Virus record (IMG/VR): IMGVR_UViG_3300023243_000009
Location: 64,001 to 128,000 of that record
Direction: 5' to 3' (one strand)
DNA: 64,000 bases
From: a virus
In this document: positions 1 through 64,000 of the stretch, piece by piece
Layout: each line of letters starts with the position of its first letter
Position numbering within the stretch: the stretch's first letter is position 1
Notes under the pieces: generated by a model
Told to the model about the DNA's origin: nothing
Seen by the model: the letters and a program-made list of their open reading frames with translations, nothing else
Databases searched by the model: none
Made by a program: the position numbers and the translations under genes

Positions 1-230
1 AATTGCTCTACTCGCCACGTTCGGTTTTTATGGTCTATCCATAGGCTTCTGCAATTTAATTGGTTTATTCTATCGCCGTAAATGTTTGTTACAAATCTAA
101 AACCTCTCTTTTGTGCTTCTTCAGCGTCAATGCTTATAAATAATTGTCTGTACTTATCACGCACTTCAAATAACAACGTATAAAAAAAATTGCTACTTTC
201 TCCATTTTTATAATCTAATTCTTTAAACAT
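1..230 (-). CDS. cassette-type small hypothetical protein (3' end beyond window)
   Basis: Read manually: ATG at 230, MFKELDYKNGESSNFFYTLLFEVRDKY..., open to position 1; starts inside the loop of attC-like site 1. Confidence 0.6.
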   Translation of the reverse strand, partial: MFKELDYKNGESSNFFYTLLFEVRDKYRQLFISIDAEEAQKRGFRFVTNIYGDRINQLNCRSLWIDHKNRTWRVEQ

Positions 231-297
231 AATTTATGATTTTATTTATTAATTTCACTATAATTAAACGCAACATTTCTTATACAATGCGTTGTAA
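168..297 (+). repeat. attC-like site 1 (130 bp)
   Basis: AAATAAC-AAC-GTATAAAAAAAATTGC ... GCAACATTTCTTATAC-AATGC-GTTGTAA: imperfect inverted repeat with AAC/GTT cores and asymmetric spacers. Confidence 0.75.
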
Positions 298-303
298 ACC
301 ATA

Positions 304-471
304 TTATTGTTTAGTTCCATCCATTAAATTACAAGCCTCGCATTGTCTTTGGCAAGTGCTTTCATAATGTGGGTTCTTGTGGTCATAACAATAAAACGAT
401 TCAACAACACCGTATATAAAGCATTTTTTCTTTACTTTCTTTTTACTAAACAACCTACTAATCAAACTCAT
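304..471 (-). CDS. 55-aa Cys-containing cassette ORF
   Basis: MSLISRLFSKKKVKKKCFIYGVVESFYCYDHKNPHYESTCQRQCEACNLMDGTKQ; starts in attC2 loop, stops 7 nt from attC1 core. Confidence 0.6.
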   Translation of the reverse strand: MSLISRLFSKKKVKKKCFIYGVVESFYCYDHKNPHYESTCQRQCEACNLMDGTKQ

Positions 472-539
472 TTTTTATCTATTAATTAGTTTTGTTGCTT
501 AATTCAAGGTCGCAACGTACCTTATACAATTCGTTGGTA
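402..539 (+). repeat. attC-like site 2 (138 bp)
   Basis: CAACAAC-ACC-GTATATAAAGC ... GCAACGTACCTTATAC-AATTC-GTTGGTA. Confidence 0.7.
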
Positions 540-551
540 GTTATTTTTTAT

Positions 552-698
552 TTATAGATAATTAAAGATTATTATTAATAATAAAAAGCCTATTAATAGT
601 AAAAAAGTAAATTTAATATCAAAAAAACAAATGCCAACATCTTTTATAACAAATTGCTTTTTATTTACTTTTTTACTAAATTGTTTATATTCTATCAT
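552..698 (-). CDS. 48-aa cassette ORF with C-terminal hydrophobic helix
   Basis: MIEYKQFSKKVNKKQFVIKDVGICFFDIKFTFLLLIGFLLLIIIFNYL; starts in attC3 loop. Confidence 0.55.
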   Translation of the reverse strand: MIEYKQFSKKVNKKQFVIKDVGICFFDIKFTFLLLIGFLLLIIIFNYL

Positions 699-761
699 TT
701 ATGTTATATTTATTTACTAATTATTAATTTACGCAAAATGCAATAAAAGGGTACGTTGTAA
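632..761 (+). repeat. attC-like site 3 (130 bp)
   Basis: TGCCAAC-AT-CTTTTATAACAAATTGC ... GCAAAATGCAATAAAAG-GGTAC-GTTGTAA. Confidence 0.7.
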
Positions 762-774
762 GTAATATTATTTA

Positions 775-1074
775 CTATCTTTTTGCTGCACTTGTAGAGC
801 TACTGCTTAACGCGCCTATACCTAATATAAATCCGAAGTCATACCAACCTCCGTTATTATTTACAGCATATATTGCTATATCGCTACTAAACAAACTACC
901 TATCCATGCAAATGGTGCAATCATTCCGTGCCAAAGTCCTCCCCAAAATCCATAAGGAGCAACTGTGGTACACGCTTCTATATTAGAGACATCGGCACAT
1001 CCCGTAAATAAGACTACAACCAACAACGTGTATAAAAAATACTTACTAATTCTGTTTAAATTTACTTTTTTCAT
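775..1074 (-). CDS. putative membrane lipoprotein, cassette-borne
   Basis: Basic N-terminus, hydrophobic stretch and lipobox-like LFTGC; Gly/aromatic-rich helices (GFWGGLWHG, GGWYDFGF); FLYTLL is encoded by the attC4 arm. Confidence 0.75.
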   Translation of the reverse strand: MKKVNLNRISKYFLYTLLVVVLFTGCADVSNIEACTTVAPYGFWGGLWHGMIAPFAWIGSLFSSDIAIYAVNNNGGWYDFGFILGIGALSSSSTSAAKR

Positions 1075-1149
1075 CTTTACTTATTTTAATTATTAATATT
1101 AAATTCTATTTATTTTTACTCGTACATTTTATACACAAATACGTTGGCA
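1021..1149 (+). repeat. attC-like site 4 (129 bp)
   Basis: CAACAAC-GTGTATAAAAAATAC ... GTACATTTTATACAC-AAATAC-GTTGGCA. Confidence 0.75.
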
Positions 1150-1980: not shown

Positions 1981-2169
1981 TTAATCGGTGGTCTGTGTTA
2001 TTTTAACACCTCCTTGTATGCTGCCAAACGCACACCCTGCAAATAATAACCAATTCCATCCATATTCAAATGTTCCGTTTATAAAATCAACAATATGTAA
2101 TGCTAATCCTATTCCGCATACAAGAAGTAGCGTCATTCCCCAAATAAAAGTTCTTGTTTCTTTAGTCAT
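1981..2169 (-). CDS. small two-TM membrane protein
   Basis: Two hydrophobic segments in 62 aa. Confidence 0.65.
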   Translation of the reverse strand: MTKETRTFIWGMTLLLVCGIGLALHIVDFINGTFEYGWNWLLFAGCAFGSIQGGVKITQTTD

Positions 2170-2246: not shown

Positions 2247-2390
2247 TTAAACCTTACTTACTGTTTTTTTAATAAAGTAATCGTATTGTCCTTTTAATTC
2301 TATTAATTCTTTAGAGGCTTGTCTTCTGCAAGCTTTCCTATAAGCTGGGTTTTCTTGCTCCCACCATTTAAATCCTGTAAATCCTTTCAT
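2247..2390 (-). CDS. 47-aa basic hypothetical protein
   Basis: MKGFTGFKWWEQENPAYRKACRRQASKELIELKGQYDYFIKKTVSKV. Confidence 0.5.
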   Translation of the reverse strand: MKGFTGFKWWEQENPAYRKACRRQASKELIELKGQYDYFIKKTVSKV

Positions 2391-3441: not shown

Positions 3442-3589
3442 TATTTGTAATCTTGAAGTTGAATTTCTGAATATTTAATTGCCTGAGCCTCAGTGAGACC
3501 TAGGTTCATTCCAATTCCAAACCAGTATTCTAAAATTTCTTGTTGATTTAATAACATAACCTTTATTGTTTTAATTGATTAACATGCCG

Positions 3590-3622
3590 GAATATACGAA
3601 GTAAAATTTACATATACAAGCC
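3590..3622 (-). promoter_or_regulatory. Bacteroidota-type promoter
   Basis: Minus strand CTTG-N18-CGTATATTC, resembling the TTTG(-33)/TAnnTTTG(-7) consensus; nearest promoter upstream of the cassette array. Confidence 0.55.
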
Positions 3623-3631
3623 TTTCATTAT

Positions 3632-4144: not shown

Positions 4145-4355
4145 AACATATACAGTTTTAGTTGATTAATGTACAGGAATATATGAAACACATCCCATGT
4201 AAAAAATAACCCCATATCTTTAGAATATGGGGTTTAAGAAATGCAAATCAAGAGATAGGGCGTAACAAAACACACCTAGTTTGTTGTGTTTATGAAGGTA
4301 AATAAGATCACTATCATTCATCTGTTTTAAGAGACTTTGAATAACCCTTTCTTCT

Positions 4356-4992: not shown

Positions 4993-5634
4993 TTACATTC
5001 GACTAATATATTGGTTAGTACTATCTTCGTCATCATCCCCCAATCCTAATTCCTTTAAACGTTGTAAGTGATATTCATCCATTTCAAAATTAACAGCGTC
5101 TGTAGTATTATTTAAAGGTGTGTGGGATTCTATTTGTTTTTCATCAATAGCGTTAAAAACATCCCCAACATATAAAAAGTAATGGTTATAACATAGTAAT
5201 TCAATATTATTCTGGTTATAGTTATTCCCGTTTTTATCTTTAAAGTGTAATAAAAGTGGAACTCTATAATCTAATACTCTACGTTCACTGAATTTGCATA
5301 TTGAACATTCTTCTTCCAGATATCCTTCTTCAATTAAACGATATTTGATTTTAGAGGGATTAAAATGTGAAGGAGATATCTTACCTTCTATTATATCTAA
5401 TAACGCAGGATCTTTCTTACCATTATTTAAAAACTTAGGTATGCCTTTTCCACTTTGGTTTTTATGTTGGTCAAATAGATTTTCATAACCCTCCTTAGTA
5501 GCTTCATAATTTTTAGCATGTCTTTTATAATGTTGATATGAAACATGAAGGTAGCGGGCGCTAGCCATATTAGATTTTGTTTTAGCCATTGCTGCTAAAA
5601 TTTGAGTCTTACTTAAAGGTTTGGGTTGTGGCAT
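4993..5634 (-). CDS. HNH-like zinc-binding protein with N-terminal HTH-like region
   Basis: CSIC ... LHFKD ... NIELLCYNH. Confidence 0.6.
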   Translation of the reverse strand: MPQPKPLSKTQILAAMAKTKSNMASARYLHVSYQHYKRHAKNYEATKEGYENLFDQHKNQSGKGIPKFLNNGKKDPALLDIIEGKISPSHFNPSKIKYRLIEEGYLEEECSICKFSERRVLDYRVPLLLHFKDKNGNNYNQNNIELLCYNHYFLYVGDVFNAIDEKQIESHTPLNNTTDAVNFEMDEYHLQRLKELGLGDDDEDSTNQYISRM

Positions 5635-60073: not shown

Positions 60074-62029
60074 TCATACCAACCCAGTTGACAATGAAGT
60101 TGAAGAAACTAAAGGTTGGAGTGTTAAGGGTTTAAAAGTAGAGGTTAACGGAAAAGGGATGGGTTTAATCTTGGTATTTAAATTATAATTTGTTGTTAAA
60201 CCATTACTTAATGCTATATATCTTTCATCACCATATTTAGTTAATTCTCCTTCATTATTCTTACCAAATGTATTCTTTTGTACAGCAGGTACAAAATCAT
60301 GGATTGGGATAAATTTGAATCCTGTTACTTTAATCATGTGGGGTAATTCTTTTACACTATCATCTGATTCTACTTCTAGAGGTGAAGATTCTTTTGCTGA
60401 CCCATAAGGGATTGCAATTTCCCATGGTGACTCTTGAGGCACATCGTATGTAATAGAGGTCATTATTCCAACCTGTTCGTATAAGTACCCACCAATTGTT
60501 AATTTTACTAAATTACCACGCATATATCCTAATTTTGAATAATCAGGAGCACATACTGAGGCTAAATAGTTTAATTTTTGATACATAGGTATTAGTTCTG
60601 CTTTTGATTGGGCAACTACCGTCCAAGATAATGAAATTGATCTGTCAAACCCATTATATCTATAAAAGTTTTCACCTCTTCCCATAAATTTTTGGGATTG
60701 CCAATCTGCAGAATAAGAATCACTCATCGAATCTATAAAAGCTCGGAAATGAATATTAGTTTTTTTAGTAGGGTCTTCATTATCTATAACACCTATTCTA
60801 AATTTAACAAGGTCATTTACAGCAGGAACATTTGATACATTTTGATTAGGTAATGTTTTATATATTTGCCTATAATTAATAGTATCTAATACTACACTAT
60901 CATCTTTTTCTTTCTTTCCAGGGTTTCCTAAATTTACTCTTATTTCTATATTTCCTGCTTTATTATAATCTAATCTAGAATATCCTTTGGGGTTTAGGAT
61001 ATTAGGTCCTATTTTAGGTTCAAACCTAGAAGATGTTTTTAATATTATTTGTTCCTGAGTAAGAGTGTTACTTCCTGCTATTTGGGTATTAGTTTTAAGA
61101 GTACCGGGGAGATATACACTATTTAAAAGGGGTATGTTAGTATCAGCCTTTATAATATTATTTTGTGATGGATCATGTACTACGCTAAAATATTTACCAG
61201 TAGCTCCAAATTTATATGTAATATTATTTATCCTATCTTGTATTCCTTGAGAATGTTGAGGTCTTAAGTTTGTATATTTACTAGGATTATAAGTTATAGT
61301 AGTAACATCATCACCTATATTAAATGTTTCTGTTGATATTCCTAAAGTAAGAAAATTTTGTCTATAATTTAAATTAGAATTGTTTATACCTGTTCTATCC
61401 TTAGCAATTTTTATATTAGTTTTACCAACTCCTAAAACAGAACCAGGTCCCCCATTGTAGGAATAAAGATTTATTTGATTATCCTTTTTTGAGTTTACAA
61501 ATTCTAAATAACCCTCTAATCTACTTTTGCTTTTTTTGTTAACTAAATCTTTATAATAAGGTTGACCTAAAGGATCAAAATCTAATATAGAATTAATAAA
61601 ATTATTGTTTCCTTTCCCAATCCCCTTAAGTGGATTTAAACCTTGTTTATTTAAATGTAATCCTAAAGGAGCCCCTGCAGCCCCTAATATGGTAGAAGTA
61701 GGCAAATAGATACCGTTATTTAATATGGCACCTTCTCCATTGGTTGCTACCGAGCTACGCGATAATATATTTTGTTTTACAGTAAATAATAAACCATTTG
61801 GTGATTTAAAATCAAAAAACATCTGTGTTAAACGAGATATATCTTTTAAAATTCTACCAGGTGTTAATAATCCTCCTCTTAAGAGAAAGTCAGGACCTCC
61901 CGTAGAACCTAAATCCCCTTCATTTGAAGGAAGTTTAGATTTAATATAAGGTTGGTTACTACTTCCCCCTCCTATTCTATCTTTACCATAACGTAAAGAT
62001 TTTAAATTCGTTCTTAAATTAACTAACAT
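60074..62029 (-). CDS. baseplate / tail-tube initiator-like protein
   Basis: FRAFI...SDSYSADW....MGRGENFYRY.GFDR...; YEQ.G. Confidence 0.7.
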   Translation of the reverse strand: MLVNLRTNLKSLRYGKDRIGGGSSNQPYIKSKLPSNEGDLGSTGGPDFLLRGGLLTPGRILKDISRLTQMFFDFKSPNGLLFTVKQNILSRSSVATNGEGAILNNGIYLPTSTILGAAGAPLGLHLNKQGLNPLKGIGKGNNNFINSILDFDPLGQPYYKDLVNKKSKSRLEGYLEFVNSKKDNQINLYSYNGGPGSVLGVGKTNIKIAKDRTGINNSNLNYRQNFLTLGISTETFNIGDDVTTITYNPSKYTNLRPQHSQGIQDRINNITYKFGATGKYFSVVHDPSQNNIIKADTNIPLLNSVYLPGTLKTNTQIAGSNTLTQEQIILKTSSRFEPKIGPNILNPKGYSRLDYNKAGNIEIRVNLGNPGKKEKDDSVVLDTINYRQIYKTLPNQNVSNVPAVNDLVKFRIGVIDNEDPTKKTNIHFRAFIDSMSDSYSADWQSQKFMGRGENFYRYNGFDRSISLSWTVVAQSKAELIPMYQKLNYLASVCAPDYSKLGYMRGNLVKLTIGGYLYEQVGIMTSITYDVPQESPWEIAIPYGSAKESSPLEVESDDSVKELPHMIKVTGFKFIPIHDFVPAVQKNTFGKNNEGELTKYGDERYIALSNGLTTNYNLNTKIKPIPFPLTSTFKPLTLQPLVSSTSLSTGLV

Positions 62030-62051: not shown

Positions 62052-64000
62052 TTATTGGATTGCGTATCTGTTTACAGACATTGCTGTACCCATATCTGTT
62101 GAGTCTAGTTTTATTGTACCTTGTTTAGATAGGATTTGACGTAATAGGGTATTTGTTTCCTTAGCTTCTGAATTGTTTCCTCCTCCTAGATTAGTGCCCG
62201 CTACTACAGTATCGTTATTGTTAAGAGCAATTGTGTCTTTACCTTTTTTAATTATGGTTTCTCCATATCCTGAAGGGATTATAGCATCATCTGCTCTGGA
62301 TGCTCTACTAATATCTGATGCTCCTCCTGTAATTGCTCCTACAATTGCTCCAGGGATGGCTCCAACACCCCCAAATGCTGCTCCCGCTATTGCTCCTGTT
62401 GCGGCACCCCCTAAAATCCCCATAATAGGTTCTAAGAATTTCACTATTTTTCCTACAAGATTAAATATCATACCTAAAAATTCAAATACGGGCATTAAAG
62501 CAGTAGCTACGTCTGCAAATATTTCTTTAAGTTTTTCTACAGAGGCATTAAATTTGTCTTGAACAGTTTGGGCTTCTAATCTATCTGCTAGTTCATCTTT
62601 ACCTAATGCTCTTAATTCTTTAGCTGTTTTACCTTGTATATCTTGTTTAAATAATATGTCAGCAAGTTCATCAGATTGCATGCCCATAGCTTTAGCTATG
62701 GCTTCTTGTTGAAGAACATTCATTTTCATGAAGCTATCAAAATCTCCTGCTTCTTTTCTTAATTCTTTAGCTAAAGTAACTTGATCACCATTTAAAGCAG
62801 CTAATCTAGCTTTTTCTAGATTAATATCCCGACCCAACAATAGTTCAGCTTCTAGTTCTGATGTTATTGATGATTCAAAATCTAATAAAGATTTACCTGC
62901 GCTTGCTACTTGTTGTAAAGAAGCACCAAATAGTTTAGATTGTGTAATGGCCTTTGCTATATTTGCAGGATTTGCTCCTAAATTTGCTCTAACAGTTCCT
63001 GTTACTTTACCTGTTTCTTCTAATATTTCTCTTAAATCAAATTGAACTCCTTCTTGACGTTGAAGTTCATAACTAGTTCCTAATACATCTTTATAATTTG
63101 ATTCGAAGCTTTTACCTGTTAACGTTGAGGCTGCAGCCAAATTACCGGCTGCTTCAGATGATACACCTACTACATTTGTAAGTTTAGTCATTGTAACTAA
63201 CGTACTAGATGCAAAATTAGTTATAAAACCAAATTGTTTGTTTAAATCACTAAATGTTTTTAATAATTTAGAAGCAGTAATATTTATATCTCCTGATTGT
63301 TTGGCAGCTGTGGATAAATTTGATCTAAAACTAGCAGCTTCATTTGCAGATAAAGCCATTCCTTTTTGAAGTTCAACTGTTTCTTTGTTAACTCTACCAA
63401 AGGCGGATAATAATTCTAGAATTATAGTAAGAGGACCTAATACTTTTTTGAAAACCGCTCCTATTGCCGGACCTAAAGTTTTAAGCCCAGCCATAAAAGG
63501 GTTTAAATTTTTAGTTAAACCTAAGGATTGAGCCCTAGCAGCAGCAGCAGTACCTGAAAGTGCTTTTCCATTTTTTCCAAACAACCCAAATTGGGCCCCT
63601 AATTCTTTAGTAAGACCTTCCCCAGTTCTAAGCATTTGAAGTTGTTCTTTAGAAGCACCTTTGACTGAACCAAACATTTGGAGGTTACTAGCAGCTTGTT
63701 TTCTTGAAGATTCGGCGGCGTCATCAAAAGGTTTTGAAAATTTACTTAATCCTGGGATTTTATTTGCTATATCAGATAAAGCACCAAAAGTTTTGGCTCC
63801 AAAATTATCTGCTACTTTTTGGGAATCTTCTTGTACTATTTTTAATTCTTTTTTAAGAAGTTCTGCTTCTTTAACTTGAATTTTTAAATTTTCAGATATG
63901 TTTTGGGATAATTCATCTTCTTCTTTAGAAAACTTTAATTGTTGTTGTTTTAAAAATATTACATCTTTATCTAATTTAGATATATCTTTAGTAGTTTTAG
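62052..64000 (-). CDS. tail tape measure protein (5' end beyond window)
   Basis: Ala/Gly/Leu-rich helical protein; I read the frame upstream of 63677 and found no stop up to 64000. Confidence 0.8.
   Translation of the reverse strand, partial: KTTKDISKLDKDVIFLKQQQLKFSKEEDELSQNISENLKIQVKEAELLKKELKIVQEDSQKVADNFGAKTFGALSDIANKIPGLSKFSKPFDDAAESSRKQAASNLQMFGSVKGASKEQLQMLRTGEGLTKELGAQFGLFGKNGKALSGTAAAARAQSLGLTKNLNPFMAGLKTLGPAIGAVFKKVLGPLTIILELLSAFGRVNKETVELQKGMALSANEAASFRSNLSTAAKQSGDINITASKLLKTFSDLNKQFGFITNFASSTLVTMTKLTNVVGVSSEAAGNLAAASTLTGKSFESNYKDVLGTSYELQRQEGVQFDLREILEETGKVTGTVRANLGANPANIAKAITQSKLFGASLQQVASAGKSLLDFESSITSELEAELLLGRDINLEKARLAALNGDQVTLAKELRKEAGDFDSFMKMNVLQQEAIAKAMGMQSDELADILFKQDIQGKTAKELRALGKDELADRLEAQTVQDKFNASVEKLKEIFADVATALMPVFEFLGMIFNLVGKIVKFLEPIMGILGGAATGAIAGAAFGGVGAIPGAIVGAITGGASDISRASRADDAIIPSGYGETIIKKGKDTIALNNNDTVVAGTNLGGGNNSEAKETNTLLRQILSKQGTIKLDSTDMGTAMSVNRYAIQ

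Follow-up and report, generated by a model that had tools for sequence, protein, structure and literature searches.

The usual picture of an integron cassette is that of a gene without a promoter of its own and with an attC recombination site behind it, and the reverse-oriented, self-promoted cassettes of chromosomal integrons (toxin-antitoxin cassettes, for example), in which the open reading frame (ORF) runs antisense to the attC top strand and is independent of the integron promoter Pc, are a minority in canonical arrays; to our knowledge, no such reversed cassette has an ORF that starts inside attC. Clusters of attC sites without the integrase gene intI (CALINs), with 2-4 sites recognised by IntegronFinder/HattCI, have been described in virulent phages including P12002L, and some of these phage sites were recombined by IntI1 (Qi et al. 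2023, PMC9892861). IntegronFinder surveys recorded Bacteroidetes with only In0 elements and one Salinibacter integron (PMC9024848), while rAID-1 of Bacteroidales is defined by a 5' XerD-like recombinase, at least 44% identical to BF9343_RS08045, and co-directional low-GC genes (Ross et al. 2019, bioRxiv 10.1101/471110). Here we analyse an array of small genes and attC-like hairpins in a 64,000-nt stretch of viral DNA (the window), bases 64001-128000 of the 138,667-bp IMG/VR virus record IMGVR_UViG_3300023243_000009, which is 85% complete. In our reading, to which we assign a probability of about 80%, it is an integron-type cassette array without integrase (CALIN-like), of a site family found in Flavobacteriaceae.

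The array occupies record positions 61862-66448 (window -2138 to 2452) and comprises 13 imperfect palindromes of about 125 nt with AAC...GTT ends, all in a single orientation; it begins 2.2 kb before the window start and reaches window position 2452, and the span 1-1149 treated in the preliminary description of this stretch covers four of the 13 sites. Throughout, the plus strand is taken as the top strand (5'-AAC ... GTT-3') and the minus strand as the bottom strand, which would be the one that folds, with crossover predicted at the GTT of the plus-strand arm. On the plus strand a site reads CAAC, 0-3 nt, a box such as GTGTATA, about 90 nt, a complementary box, 4-7 nt and GTTG or GTTA, and the R and L boxes are accordingly separated by an asymmetric internal loop, with 4-7 nt on the R' side versus 0-3 nt on the other. 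Nine sites span 116-135 nt, three span 152, 197 and 253 nt, and one spans 43 nt (attC range tested, 57-141 bp). Since our own permissive AAC-stem-GTT scanner returned about 1,900 matches in the record and was useless, a covariance model (R1) was used instead; built solely from nine copies of the phage sites, with site E12 outside the seed, it gave 12 matches in the whole 138.7-kb record, all on the same strand between record positions 62199 and 66247 and none elsewhere. The 13th site is a 43-nt short hairpin (E13), and there is in addition a lone GTT half-site at record 61862 (first site). Within the record, the arm motif occurs only in a single stretch of 4.2 kb.

The two-arm pattern was compared with one genome per prokaryote species and found at 58 loci, nearly all in marine Flavobacteriaceae (Polaribacter, Winogradskyella, Psychroserpens, Lacinutrix, Tenacibaculum, Mangrovimonas, Cellulophaga and others), against a chance expectation of about 0.5 matches, a figure that is our estimate and not a shuffle control; it also found the element in other viral contigs. 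These 58 loci of 8 kb hold 234 covariance-model matches, same-stranded and 0.5-1 kb apart, and the phage-built model scores bacterial sites (median length 143 nt) at up to 94.6 bits, with consensus boxes identical to those of the phage; the R-box variants GTTGGCA and GTTGTAA are common to phage and bacteria. In the three genomes checked, a gene for an IntI/Xer-like tyrosine recombinase lies 1-2 kb from where the arrays begin. In Polaribacter sp. R77954 (NZ_CP138992.1; L084, G006:C1:1898170-2034288), at least 125 sites run one way over 134 kb (1,900,198-2,034,288), and a 371-aa IntI-like gene precedes them by 1.2 kb and points in the same direction as the cassettes; there are two such recombinase-array units in Polaribacter marinivivus and one in Pontimicrobium. 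The R77954 recombinase scores 192 bits with TIGR02249 and 207 with NF040815, versus 172 with XerD and 165 with XerC, so that archaeal XerA/integron-integrase and integron-integrase models rank above XerC/D, and its best solved-structure matches are XerA, an XerC-like protein and IntI4.

These bacterial arrays fix the strand on which the phage genes are to be judged. In all 104 bacterial cassettes with an ORF, the longest ORF lies on the attC top strand (corresponding to window plus) and stops by the AAC arm, which is the canonical layout, whereas 16 of the 18 cassettes in viral contigs are reversed, with the ORF on the bottom strand, as are 10 of 10 here (p = 4e-18). In the phage, no canonical top-strand ORF ending by R'' occurs, every ORF being on the bottom strand. 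At least seven sites of the family are present in P12002L, a cultured lytic phage of Polaribacter (L087, NC_028924), on both genome arms and co-oriented with local genes, and three of its annotated starts, those of gp37 and gp60 among them, fall inside sites. The P12002L sites lie at 30.9-41.0 kb and at 14.5 kb, between early genes, several of them beside DNA methyltransferase genes. The preliminary description had placed the genes antisense to the attC top strand and had proposed an inverted cassette design adapted to the phage, and both proposals are borne out, since the bacterial relatives fix the top strand and the crossover, as set out below, falls in the plus-strand GTT arm.

The second departure from the canonical layout concerns where the genes begin. 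The features of the array within the window are as follows, with site scores in bits from the covariance model.

1-230 (full ORF, record 63991-64230), minus strand: cassette ORF C7, 79 aa, stop 9 nt before the window start, ATG 230 in the E7 loop
163-302, top strand plus: attC-like site E7, R''/L'' arm from 174 (CAAC-GTATAA), L'/R' arm ending in GTTG at 291-294, 97 bits
304-471, minus strand: cassette ORF C8, 55 aa, Cys-rich orphan, ATG 471 in the E8 loop
396-544, top strand plus: attC-like site E8, CAAC at 402, GTTG at 533, 95.6 bits
552-698, minus strand: cassette ORF C9, 48 aa, orphan with a hydrophobic C-terminus, ATG 698 in the E9 loop
627-766, top strand plus: attC-like site E9, CAAC at 635, GTTG at 755, 90.5 bits
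775-1074, minus strand: cassette ORF C10, 99-aa predicted lipoprotein, ATG 1074 in the E10 loop
1013-1154, top strand plus: attC-like site E10, CAAC at 1021, GTTG at 1143, 92.7 bits
1184-1800, minus strand: cassette 11, three small ORFs (1184-1393, 1451-1672, 1672-1800), first ATG 1800, 57 nt past hairpin E11
1850-1981, top strand plus: attC-like site E11, 82 bits, the hairpin with the greatest stability, loop without an ORF start
1981-2169, minus strand: cassette ORF C12, 62 aa, membrane-like, ATG 2169 in the E12 loop
2083-2247, top strand plus: attC-like site E12, degenerate, core TTTG, 35 bits, E = 0.002
2247-2390, minus strand: cassette ORF C13, 47 aa, ATG 2390, 15 nt past short hairpin E13
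2403-2452, top strand plus: short hairpin site E13, 43 nt, array end

Four ATGs had been reported to lie in the central loops of the hairpins, and they do: ATG 230 falls between arms 174-182 and 281-294, ATG 471 between 402-416 and 523-536, ATG 698 between 635-650 and 743-758, and ATG 1074 between 1021-1034 and 1130-1146; the distance of these ATGs to the GTT core is 56-68 nt and that to the AAC core 49-65 nt. The four ORFs read through the AAC arm, as had also been noted, giving NFFYTLL, IYGVVES, VIKDVGI and FLYTLLV, respectively. The arm is indeed translated as xYTLL or as I/L-Y/H-x-VV, but the peptide signature that had been seen in these motifs is a by-product of the arm sequence, since it is the arm read in two of its three frames. 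Similarly, the stops do fall close to the previous GTT core, at distances of 9, 9, 15 and 16 nt from GTTG/GTTA and not at the 7-14 nt given before, and the rule that each unit starts in its own loop applies to seven to nine of the 13 units without being universal. Over the whole array, seven first ORFs start in a loop (E4, E6-E10 and E12), two lie entirely inside enlarged loops (E2 and E5), and the remaining four (E1, E3, E11 and E13) begin 15-57 nt past the hairpin. A loop ATG opening an ORF of at least 40 aa was found in 8 of 11 sites here, compared with 15 of 146 among the bacterial members of the site family (p = 8e-6, a 7-fold enrichment), and in 6 of 17 other viral sites.

Judged from the sequence, the predicted recombination site is at the same time the 5' leader and the N-terminal coding sequence of the phage cassette gene. 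Phage homologues confirm the predicted N-termini of C7 and C10, in-loop starts included. C7 is 78% identical over 79 aa to gp8 of Cellulophaga phage Nekkels_1, matches phrog_35589 and is related to phi10:1 gp045; its N-terminus is conserved in both Nekkels_1 and phi10:1, and its nucleotide homology with Nekkels_1 starts 2 nt past the predicted crossover. C10 matches phrog_30702 (E = 9e-39) and is 66% identical over 85 aa to phi17:2 gp185; the AAC arm encodes the hydrophobic core of its predicted signal peptide (FLYTLLVVVLFTGC), and its start must therefore lie in the loop. C8 has as sole relative one 98%-identical protein, and its first internal Met does not come before residue 50. The bacterial consensus has a conserved apical mini-hairpin in the loop (GAAAATCC-GCGA-GGATTTTC, model positions about 77-97), and phage copies carry an AT-rich leader and the start codon in its place. 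Also in the array, E13, which is free-standing, is about 92% identical to a 48-nt stretch at the other array end (record 62204-62255), nested in the AAC-side arm of E1.

These observations bear on the possibility that the locus is a dead relic, namely a piece of a host array gained by illegitimate recombination, with minus-strand ORFs that are chance frames in AT-rich DNA. In its favour, Pfam and PHROG searches left most cassette ORFs without a match, as orphans, E12 and the E2 and E5 loops are irregular, and the record has no recombinase. Neither database gave functions, and when the 16 cassette proteins were compared by tblastn with every locus retrieved, nothing matched beyond the two phage homologues already known. 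Against it, plus-strand frames are short (at most 67 aa), two minus-strand ORFs have full-length phage homologues, N-terminus included, a third line of evidence being the complete predicted lipoprotein signal peptide that spans the arm in one ORF, and in-loop ORFs show the enrichment over bacterial sites given above. Moreover, independent viral contigs and a cultured phage have the reversed orientation as well, and the layout is present in 0 of 104 bacterial cassettes, from which a relic would have come. We therefore regard a relic as very improbable.

The sequences outside the cores carry an integron-type recombination footprint. The flank past each GTT, outside the 4-nt core, matches the flank before the next AAC and not its own hairpin partner (for example TACTGCCAAC at E1-R and E2-L). 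Scored as Watson-Crick pairs among the 9 nt outside the core, this footprint amounts here to 5.3 pairs across the cassette, versus 3.7 within the hairpin and 3.8 in random pairs; the corresponding values are 6.8, 3.4 and 3.2 in the bacterial arrays, which served as positive control, and 6.7, 3.7 and 3.4 in other viral contigs. The cross-cassette match is significant by permutation (gapped p < 1e-5, ungapped p about 8e-4), and flank pairing inside hairpins is at background, wobbles allowed or not. In addition, one hairpin is common to four contigs in three contexts (L014, L018 and L021), and on the gene-sense strand the similarity begins exactly at the AAC core and continues through the hairpin and 16 nt of the far, GTT-side flank. 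This exact break at the AAC core places the crossover in the plus-strand GTT arm, and each phage cassette would thus be a whole gene with its leader. The reverse arrangement, with crossover in the ORF-side arm and canonical genes, was rejected, since it would cut ancestral genes and is contradicted by the bacterial top strand and by the break in the shared hairpin.

Two further loci show sites in other settings. In an unrelated phage contig (L007:4977-6580), three sites bracket an insertion of about 1.6 kb that carries small genes and separates the gene for the terminase large subunit from the portal gene; the sequence past site 1 shows complementarity to that before site 2 (CACACAAC). At the other locus (L006:60-275), a site directly follows a tRNA-like 3' end (GGTTCGACTCC), and a 50-aa membrane ORF is bounded by GTTGTAAA ... 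TTTACAAC.

The footprint also tells against regulatory modules resembling the PeSLs of T4-type phages, in which a terminator stem-loop is combined with an early promoter and genes would be shuffled by homologous recombination between the repeats. The array does sit in an early/replication-gene region full of small ORFs, and PeSLs likewise bracket small genes and give mini-circles (PMC2839356, PMC4122927). However, homologous recombination would yield neither cassette-specific flank complementarity nor a breakpoint exactly at the core; a PeSL is a short G/C-rich stem-loop followed by a promoter, whereas the hairpins here are of about 125 nt, have AAC/GTT ends and enclose start codons; and in bacteria the same sites adjoin a tyrosine recombinase gene. 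An origin of this kind seems to us hardly credible.

The fold itself is supported by several measures. Ten of 12 inner arms pair best with their own partner (permutation p < 5e-5), compensatory changes were found at 8 of 16 pairs when RNAalifold was applied to an alignment that had not been fitted to a model, AAC and GTT are invariant in the alignments, and the inner boxes of E9 (CTTTTAT/ATAAAAG) covary relative to the GTATA/TATAC boxes of other sites. Almost every arm mismatch is a G-T wobble, and these wobbles are one-sided, on the bottom (minus) strand, with 26 versus 2 A-C in counts that depend on model-fitted alignments, and about 19 versus 0 when counted by hand; in bacterial sites the same bias toward the bottom strand is 503 versus 37. 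With RNA parameters the minus strand folds better than the plus strand (mean z about -2.3 versus -1.0), and z is about 0 with DNA parameters; E11 reaches z = -5.0 (RNA) and -4.3 (DNA) on the bottom strand.

Such values would also be expected if the phage hairpins acted mainly in RNA, as 5'-leader or intercistronic structures controlling processing, stability or translation of the small early genes, with the integron likeness reflecting ancestry only. The well-folding strand is the mRNA strand, phage sites are nearly always co-oriented with transcription, including those on both arms of P12002L, and the ATG lies near the hairpin centre. An mRNA hairpin, at first favoured at slightly better than even odds on the wobble bias and the RNA fold z, was indeed our earlier reading, and it was dropped on the bacterial wobble bias and the cross-cassette footprint. 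The bacterial arrays show the same bias although their mRNA is the other strand, which makes it a feature of the DNA site rather than of the phage mRNA; flanks pair across cassettes and not within hairpins, as recombination predicts and RNA folding does not; and the same hairpin is joined exactly at the core to different genes. Furthermore, the start codon is not sequestered in the stem, and a promoter-proximal-like AT box separates the 5' arm from the ATG, so that transcripts, if this box is used, would lack the 5' arm. We consider a mainly RNA-borne role improbable.

A motif near 3590-3622, proposed earlier as the promoter of the minus-strand genes, is a real repeated promoter-like box, made of TTCGTATATTC, about 8 nt and TTAATCAAnTAAAAC, and located about 15-45 nt upstream of an ATG.

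Window 3558-3631 and 4145-4200, and record 61752-61810: promoter-like box

The hexamer TTCGTA was found upstream of 15 of 150 genes versus 0 of 124 coding controls, and the motif stands upstream of 15-16 other phage genes. Cassette loops contain an AT-rich box (TTAATnAnTAAAA) resembling the proximal half of this motif, without the distal TTCGTATATTC half.

Taken together, these data suggest that each cassette of the array would amount to a small, self-contained gene of the phage, carried by the bottom strand, for which the variable loop of the site would supply the 5' leader and start codon and the R''/L'' arm would encode residues ~14-20. A host-encoded IntI-like recombinase might move the cassettes via the folded bottom strand, and expression would presumably come from phage or loop-borne promoters and not from Pc.

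Several findings weigh against the integron-type reading. No tyrosine or serine recombinase was detected in the phage record (no PF00589, TIGR02249 or PF00239 match, the record being 85% complete), which is why we call the array CALIN-like, nor in P12002L or eight other viral fragments, save one degraded piece. The bacterial recombinase falls below the curated integron-integrase cut-off, and no phage cassette protein was found in 380 kb of sampled bacterial arrays. The R boxes deviate from the GTTRRRY/RYYYAAC consensus, with 1-3 mismatches in phage sites; those of the bacterial relatives mostly have 1-2 mismatches (6 of 148 are perfect, the AAC/GTT triplets alone being conserved). As DNA, the hairpins are scarcely more stable than shuffled sequence, E11 excepted, and the wobble counts carry the dependence on fitted alignments stated above. 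Finally, the phi17:2 and phi10:1 homologues of two cassette genes have no hairpin, so that arms might arise or decay in place. The degraded piece, a tyrosine-recombinase fragment with three stop codons (L088, G012:C1:211231-211503, on a 270-kb phage contig also holding L017), is the sole recombinase trace among the ten viral records searched.

The window has about 30% G+C, with genes almost all on the minus strand, and its closest DNA matches are small genes of Cellulophaga phages; a search with a neighbouring 145-aa protein found no relatives of the phage. The array lies in an early/replication-gene region rich in small ORFs, and downstream of it are genes for a phage DNA polymerase, a DnaB-type helicase, a GroEL-like protein and an HNH endonuclease. 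The HNH endonuclease ORF (window 4993-5634, 213 aa, phrog_14736) is 2.5 kb from the array.

On a broader scale, we give even odds to the view that a single integron-like system of gene capture, overlooked by standard surveys, is common to marine Flavobacteriaceae and their phages. Its sites would be of 143 nt, and its IntI/Xer-like recombinase would be encoded in the same direction as the arrays, which exceed 100 cassettes. On this view the phages would keep their own 'mirror' cassette pool, in which the site provides the gene with its promoter-proximal leader, its start codon and its initial 15-20 codons, and would borrow the host recombinase to trade early genes. A lytic phage carries here 13 cassettes of the site family that builds 100-plus-cassette arrays in an abundant marine bacterial family, and its copies follow the opposite grammar, with the gene on the folding strand and the site over the gene 5' end, a sequence rule that separates phage from host cassettes. 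One DNA stretch would then have to serve recombinase, fold and reading frame together. This represents a candidate route by which phages of these bacteria could shuffle early genes, possibly for host takeover or anti-defence, it bears on how cassettes arise and on the reach of the system beyond Proteobacteria, and P12002L and its host, Polaribacter IMCC12002, provide a cultured test system.

A literature search found no description of the Flavobacteriaceae arrays or of reversed phage cassettes, which is not proof that none exists, and the nearest systems each resemble the locus in part. The phage CALINs (PMC9892861) have in common with it attC-type sites and cassettes, the lack of intI and a Flavobacteriaceae phage among the carriers, but they have 2-4 sites versus 13 here, and their description mentions no reversed genes that start within a site. 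The sites that our model finds in P12002L, at least seven, do not include the two already published for that phage (at about 29.2 and 30.0 kb), and no experimental result therefore carries over to the Flavobacteriaceae site family. Sedentary chromosomal integrons, such as those of Vibrio, resemble the bacterial arrays in their end-placed tyrosine recombinase, long one-way arrays of homogeneous attC sites, G|TT footprint and bottom-strand fold; the Flavobacteriaceae sites differ in being of about 143 nt, in their poor GTTRRRY fit and in a recombinase that is co-directional and below the integrase cut-off, and the phage genes occupy the bottom strand. rAID-1, compared by layout alone, shows the recombinase-first co-directional arrangement of the Flavobacteriaceae arrays, but it is chromosomal, carries immunity genes and has not been reported in phages or with reversed genes, while this phage has no recombinase. 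With PeSLs (PMC2839356, PMC4122927), too, small genes lie between repeats in plastic parts of large lytic phage genomes, and circles the size of a gene have been proposed; their short stem-loops with promoter lack AAC/GTT cores, cassette-specific flanks and a recombinase-linked counterpart in bacteria. From the reversed cassettes of toxin-antitoxin type, finally, the phage copies differ in that reversal is the rule and the site overlaps the 5' end of the gene.

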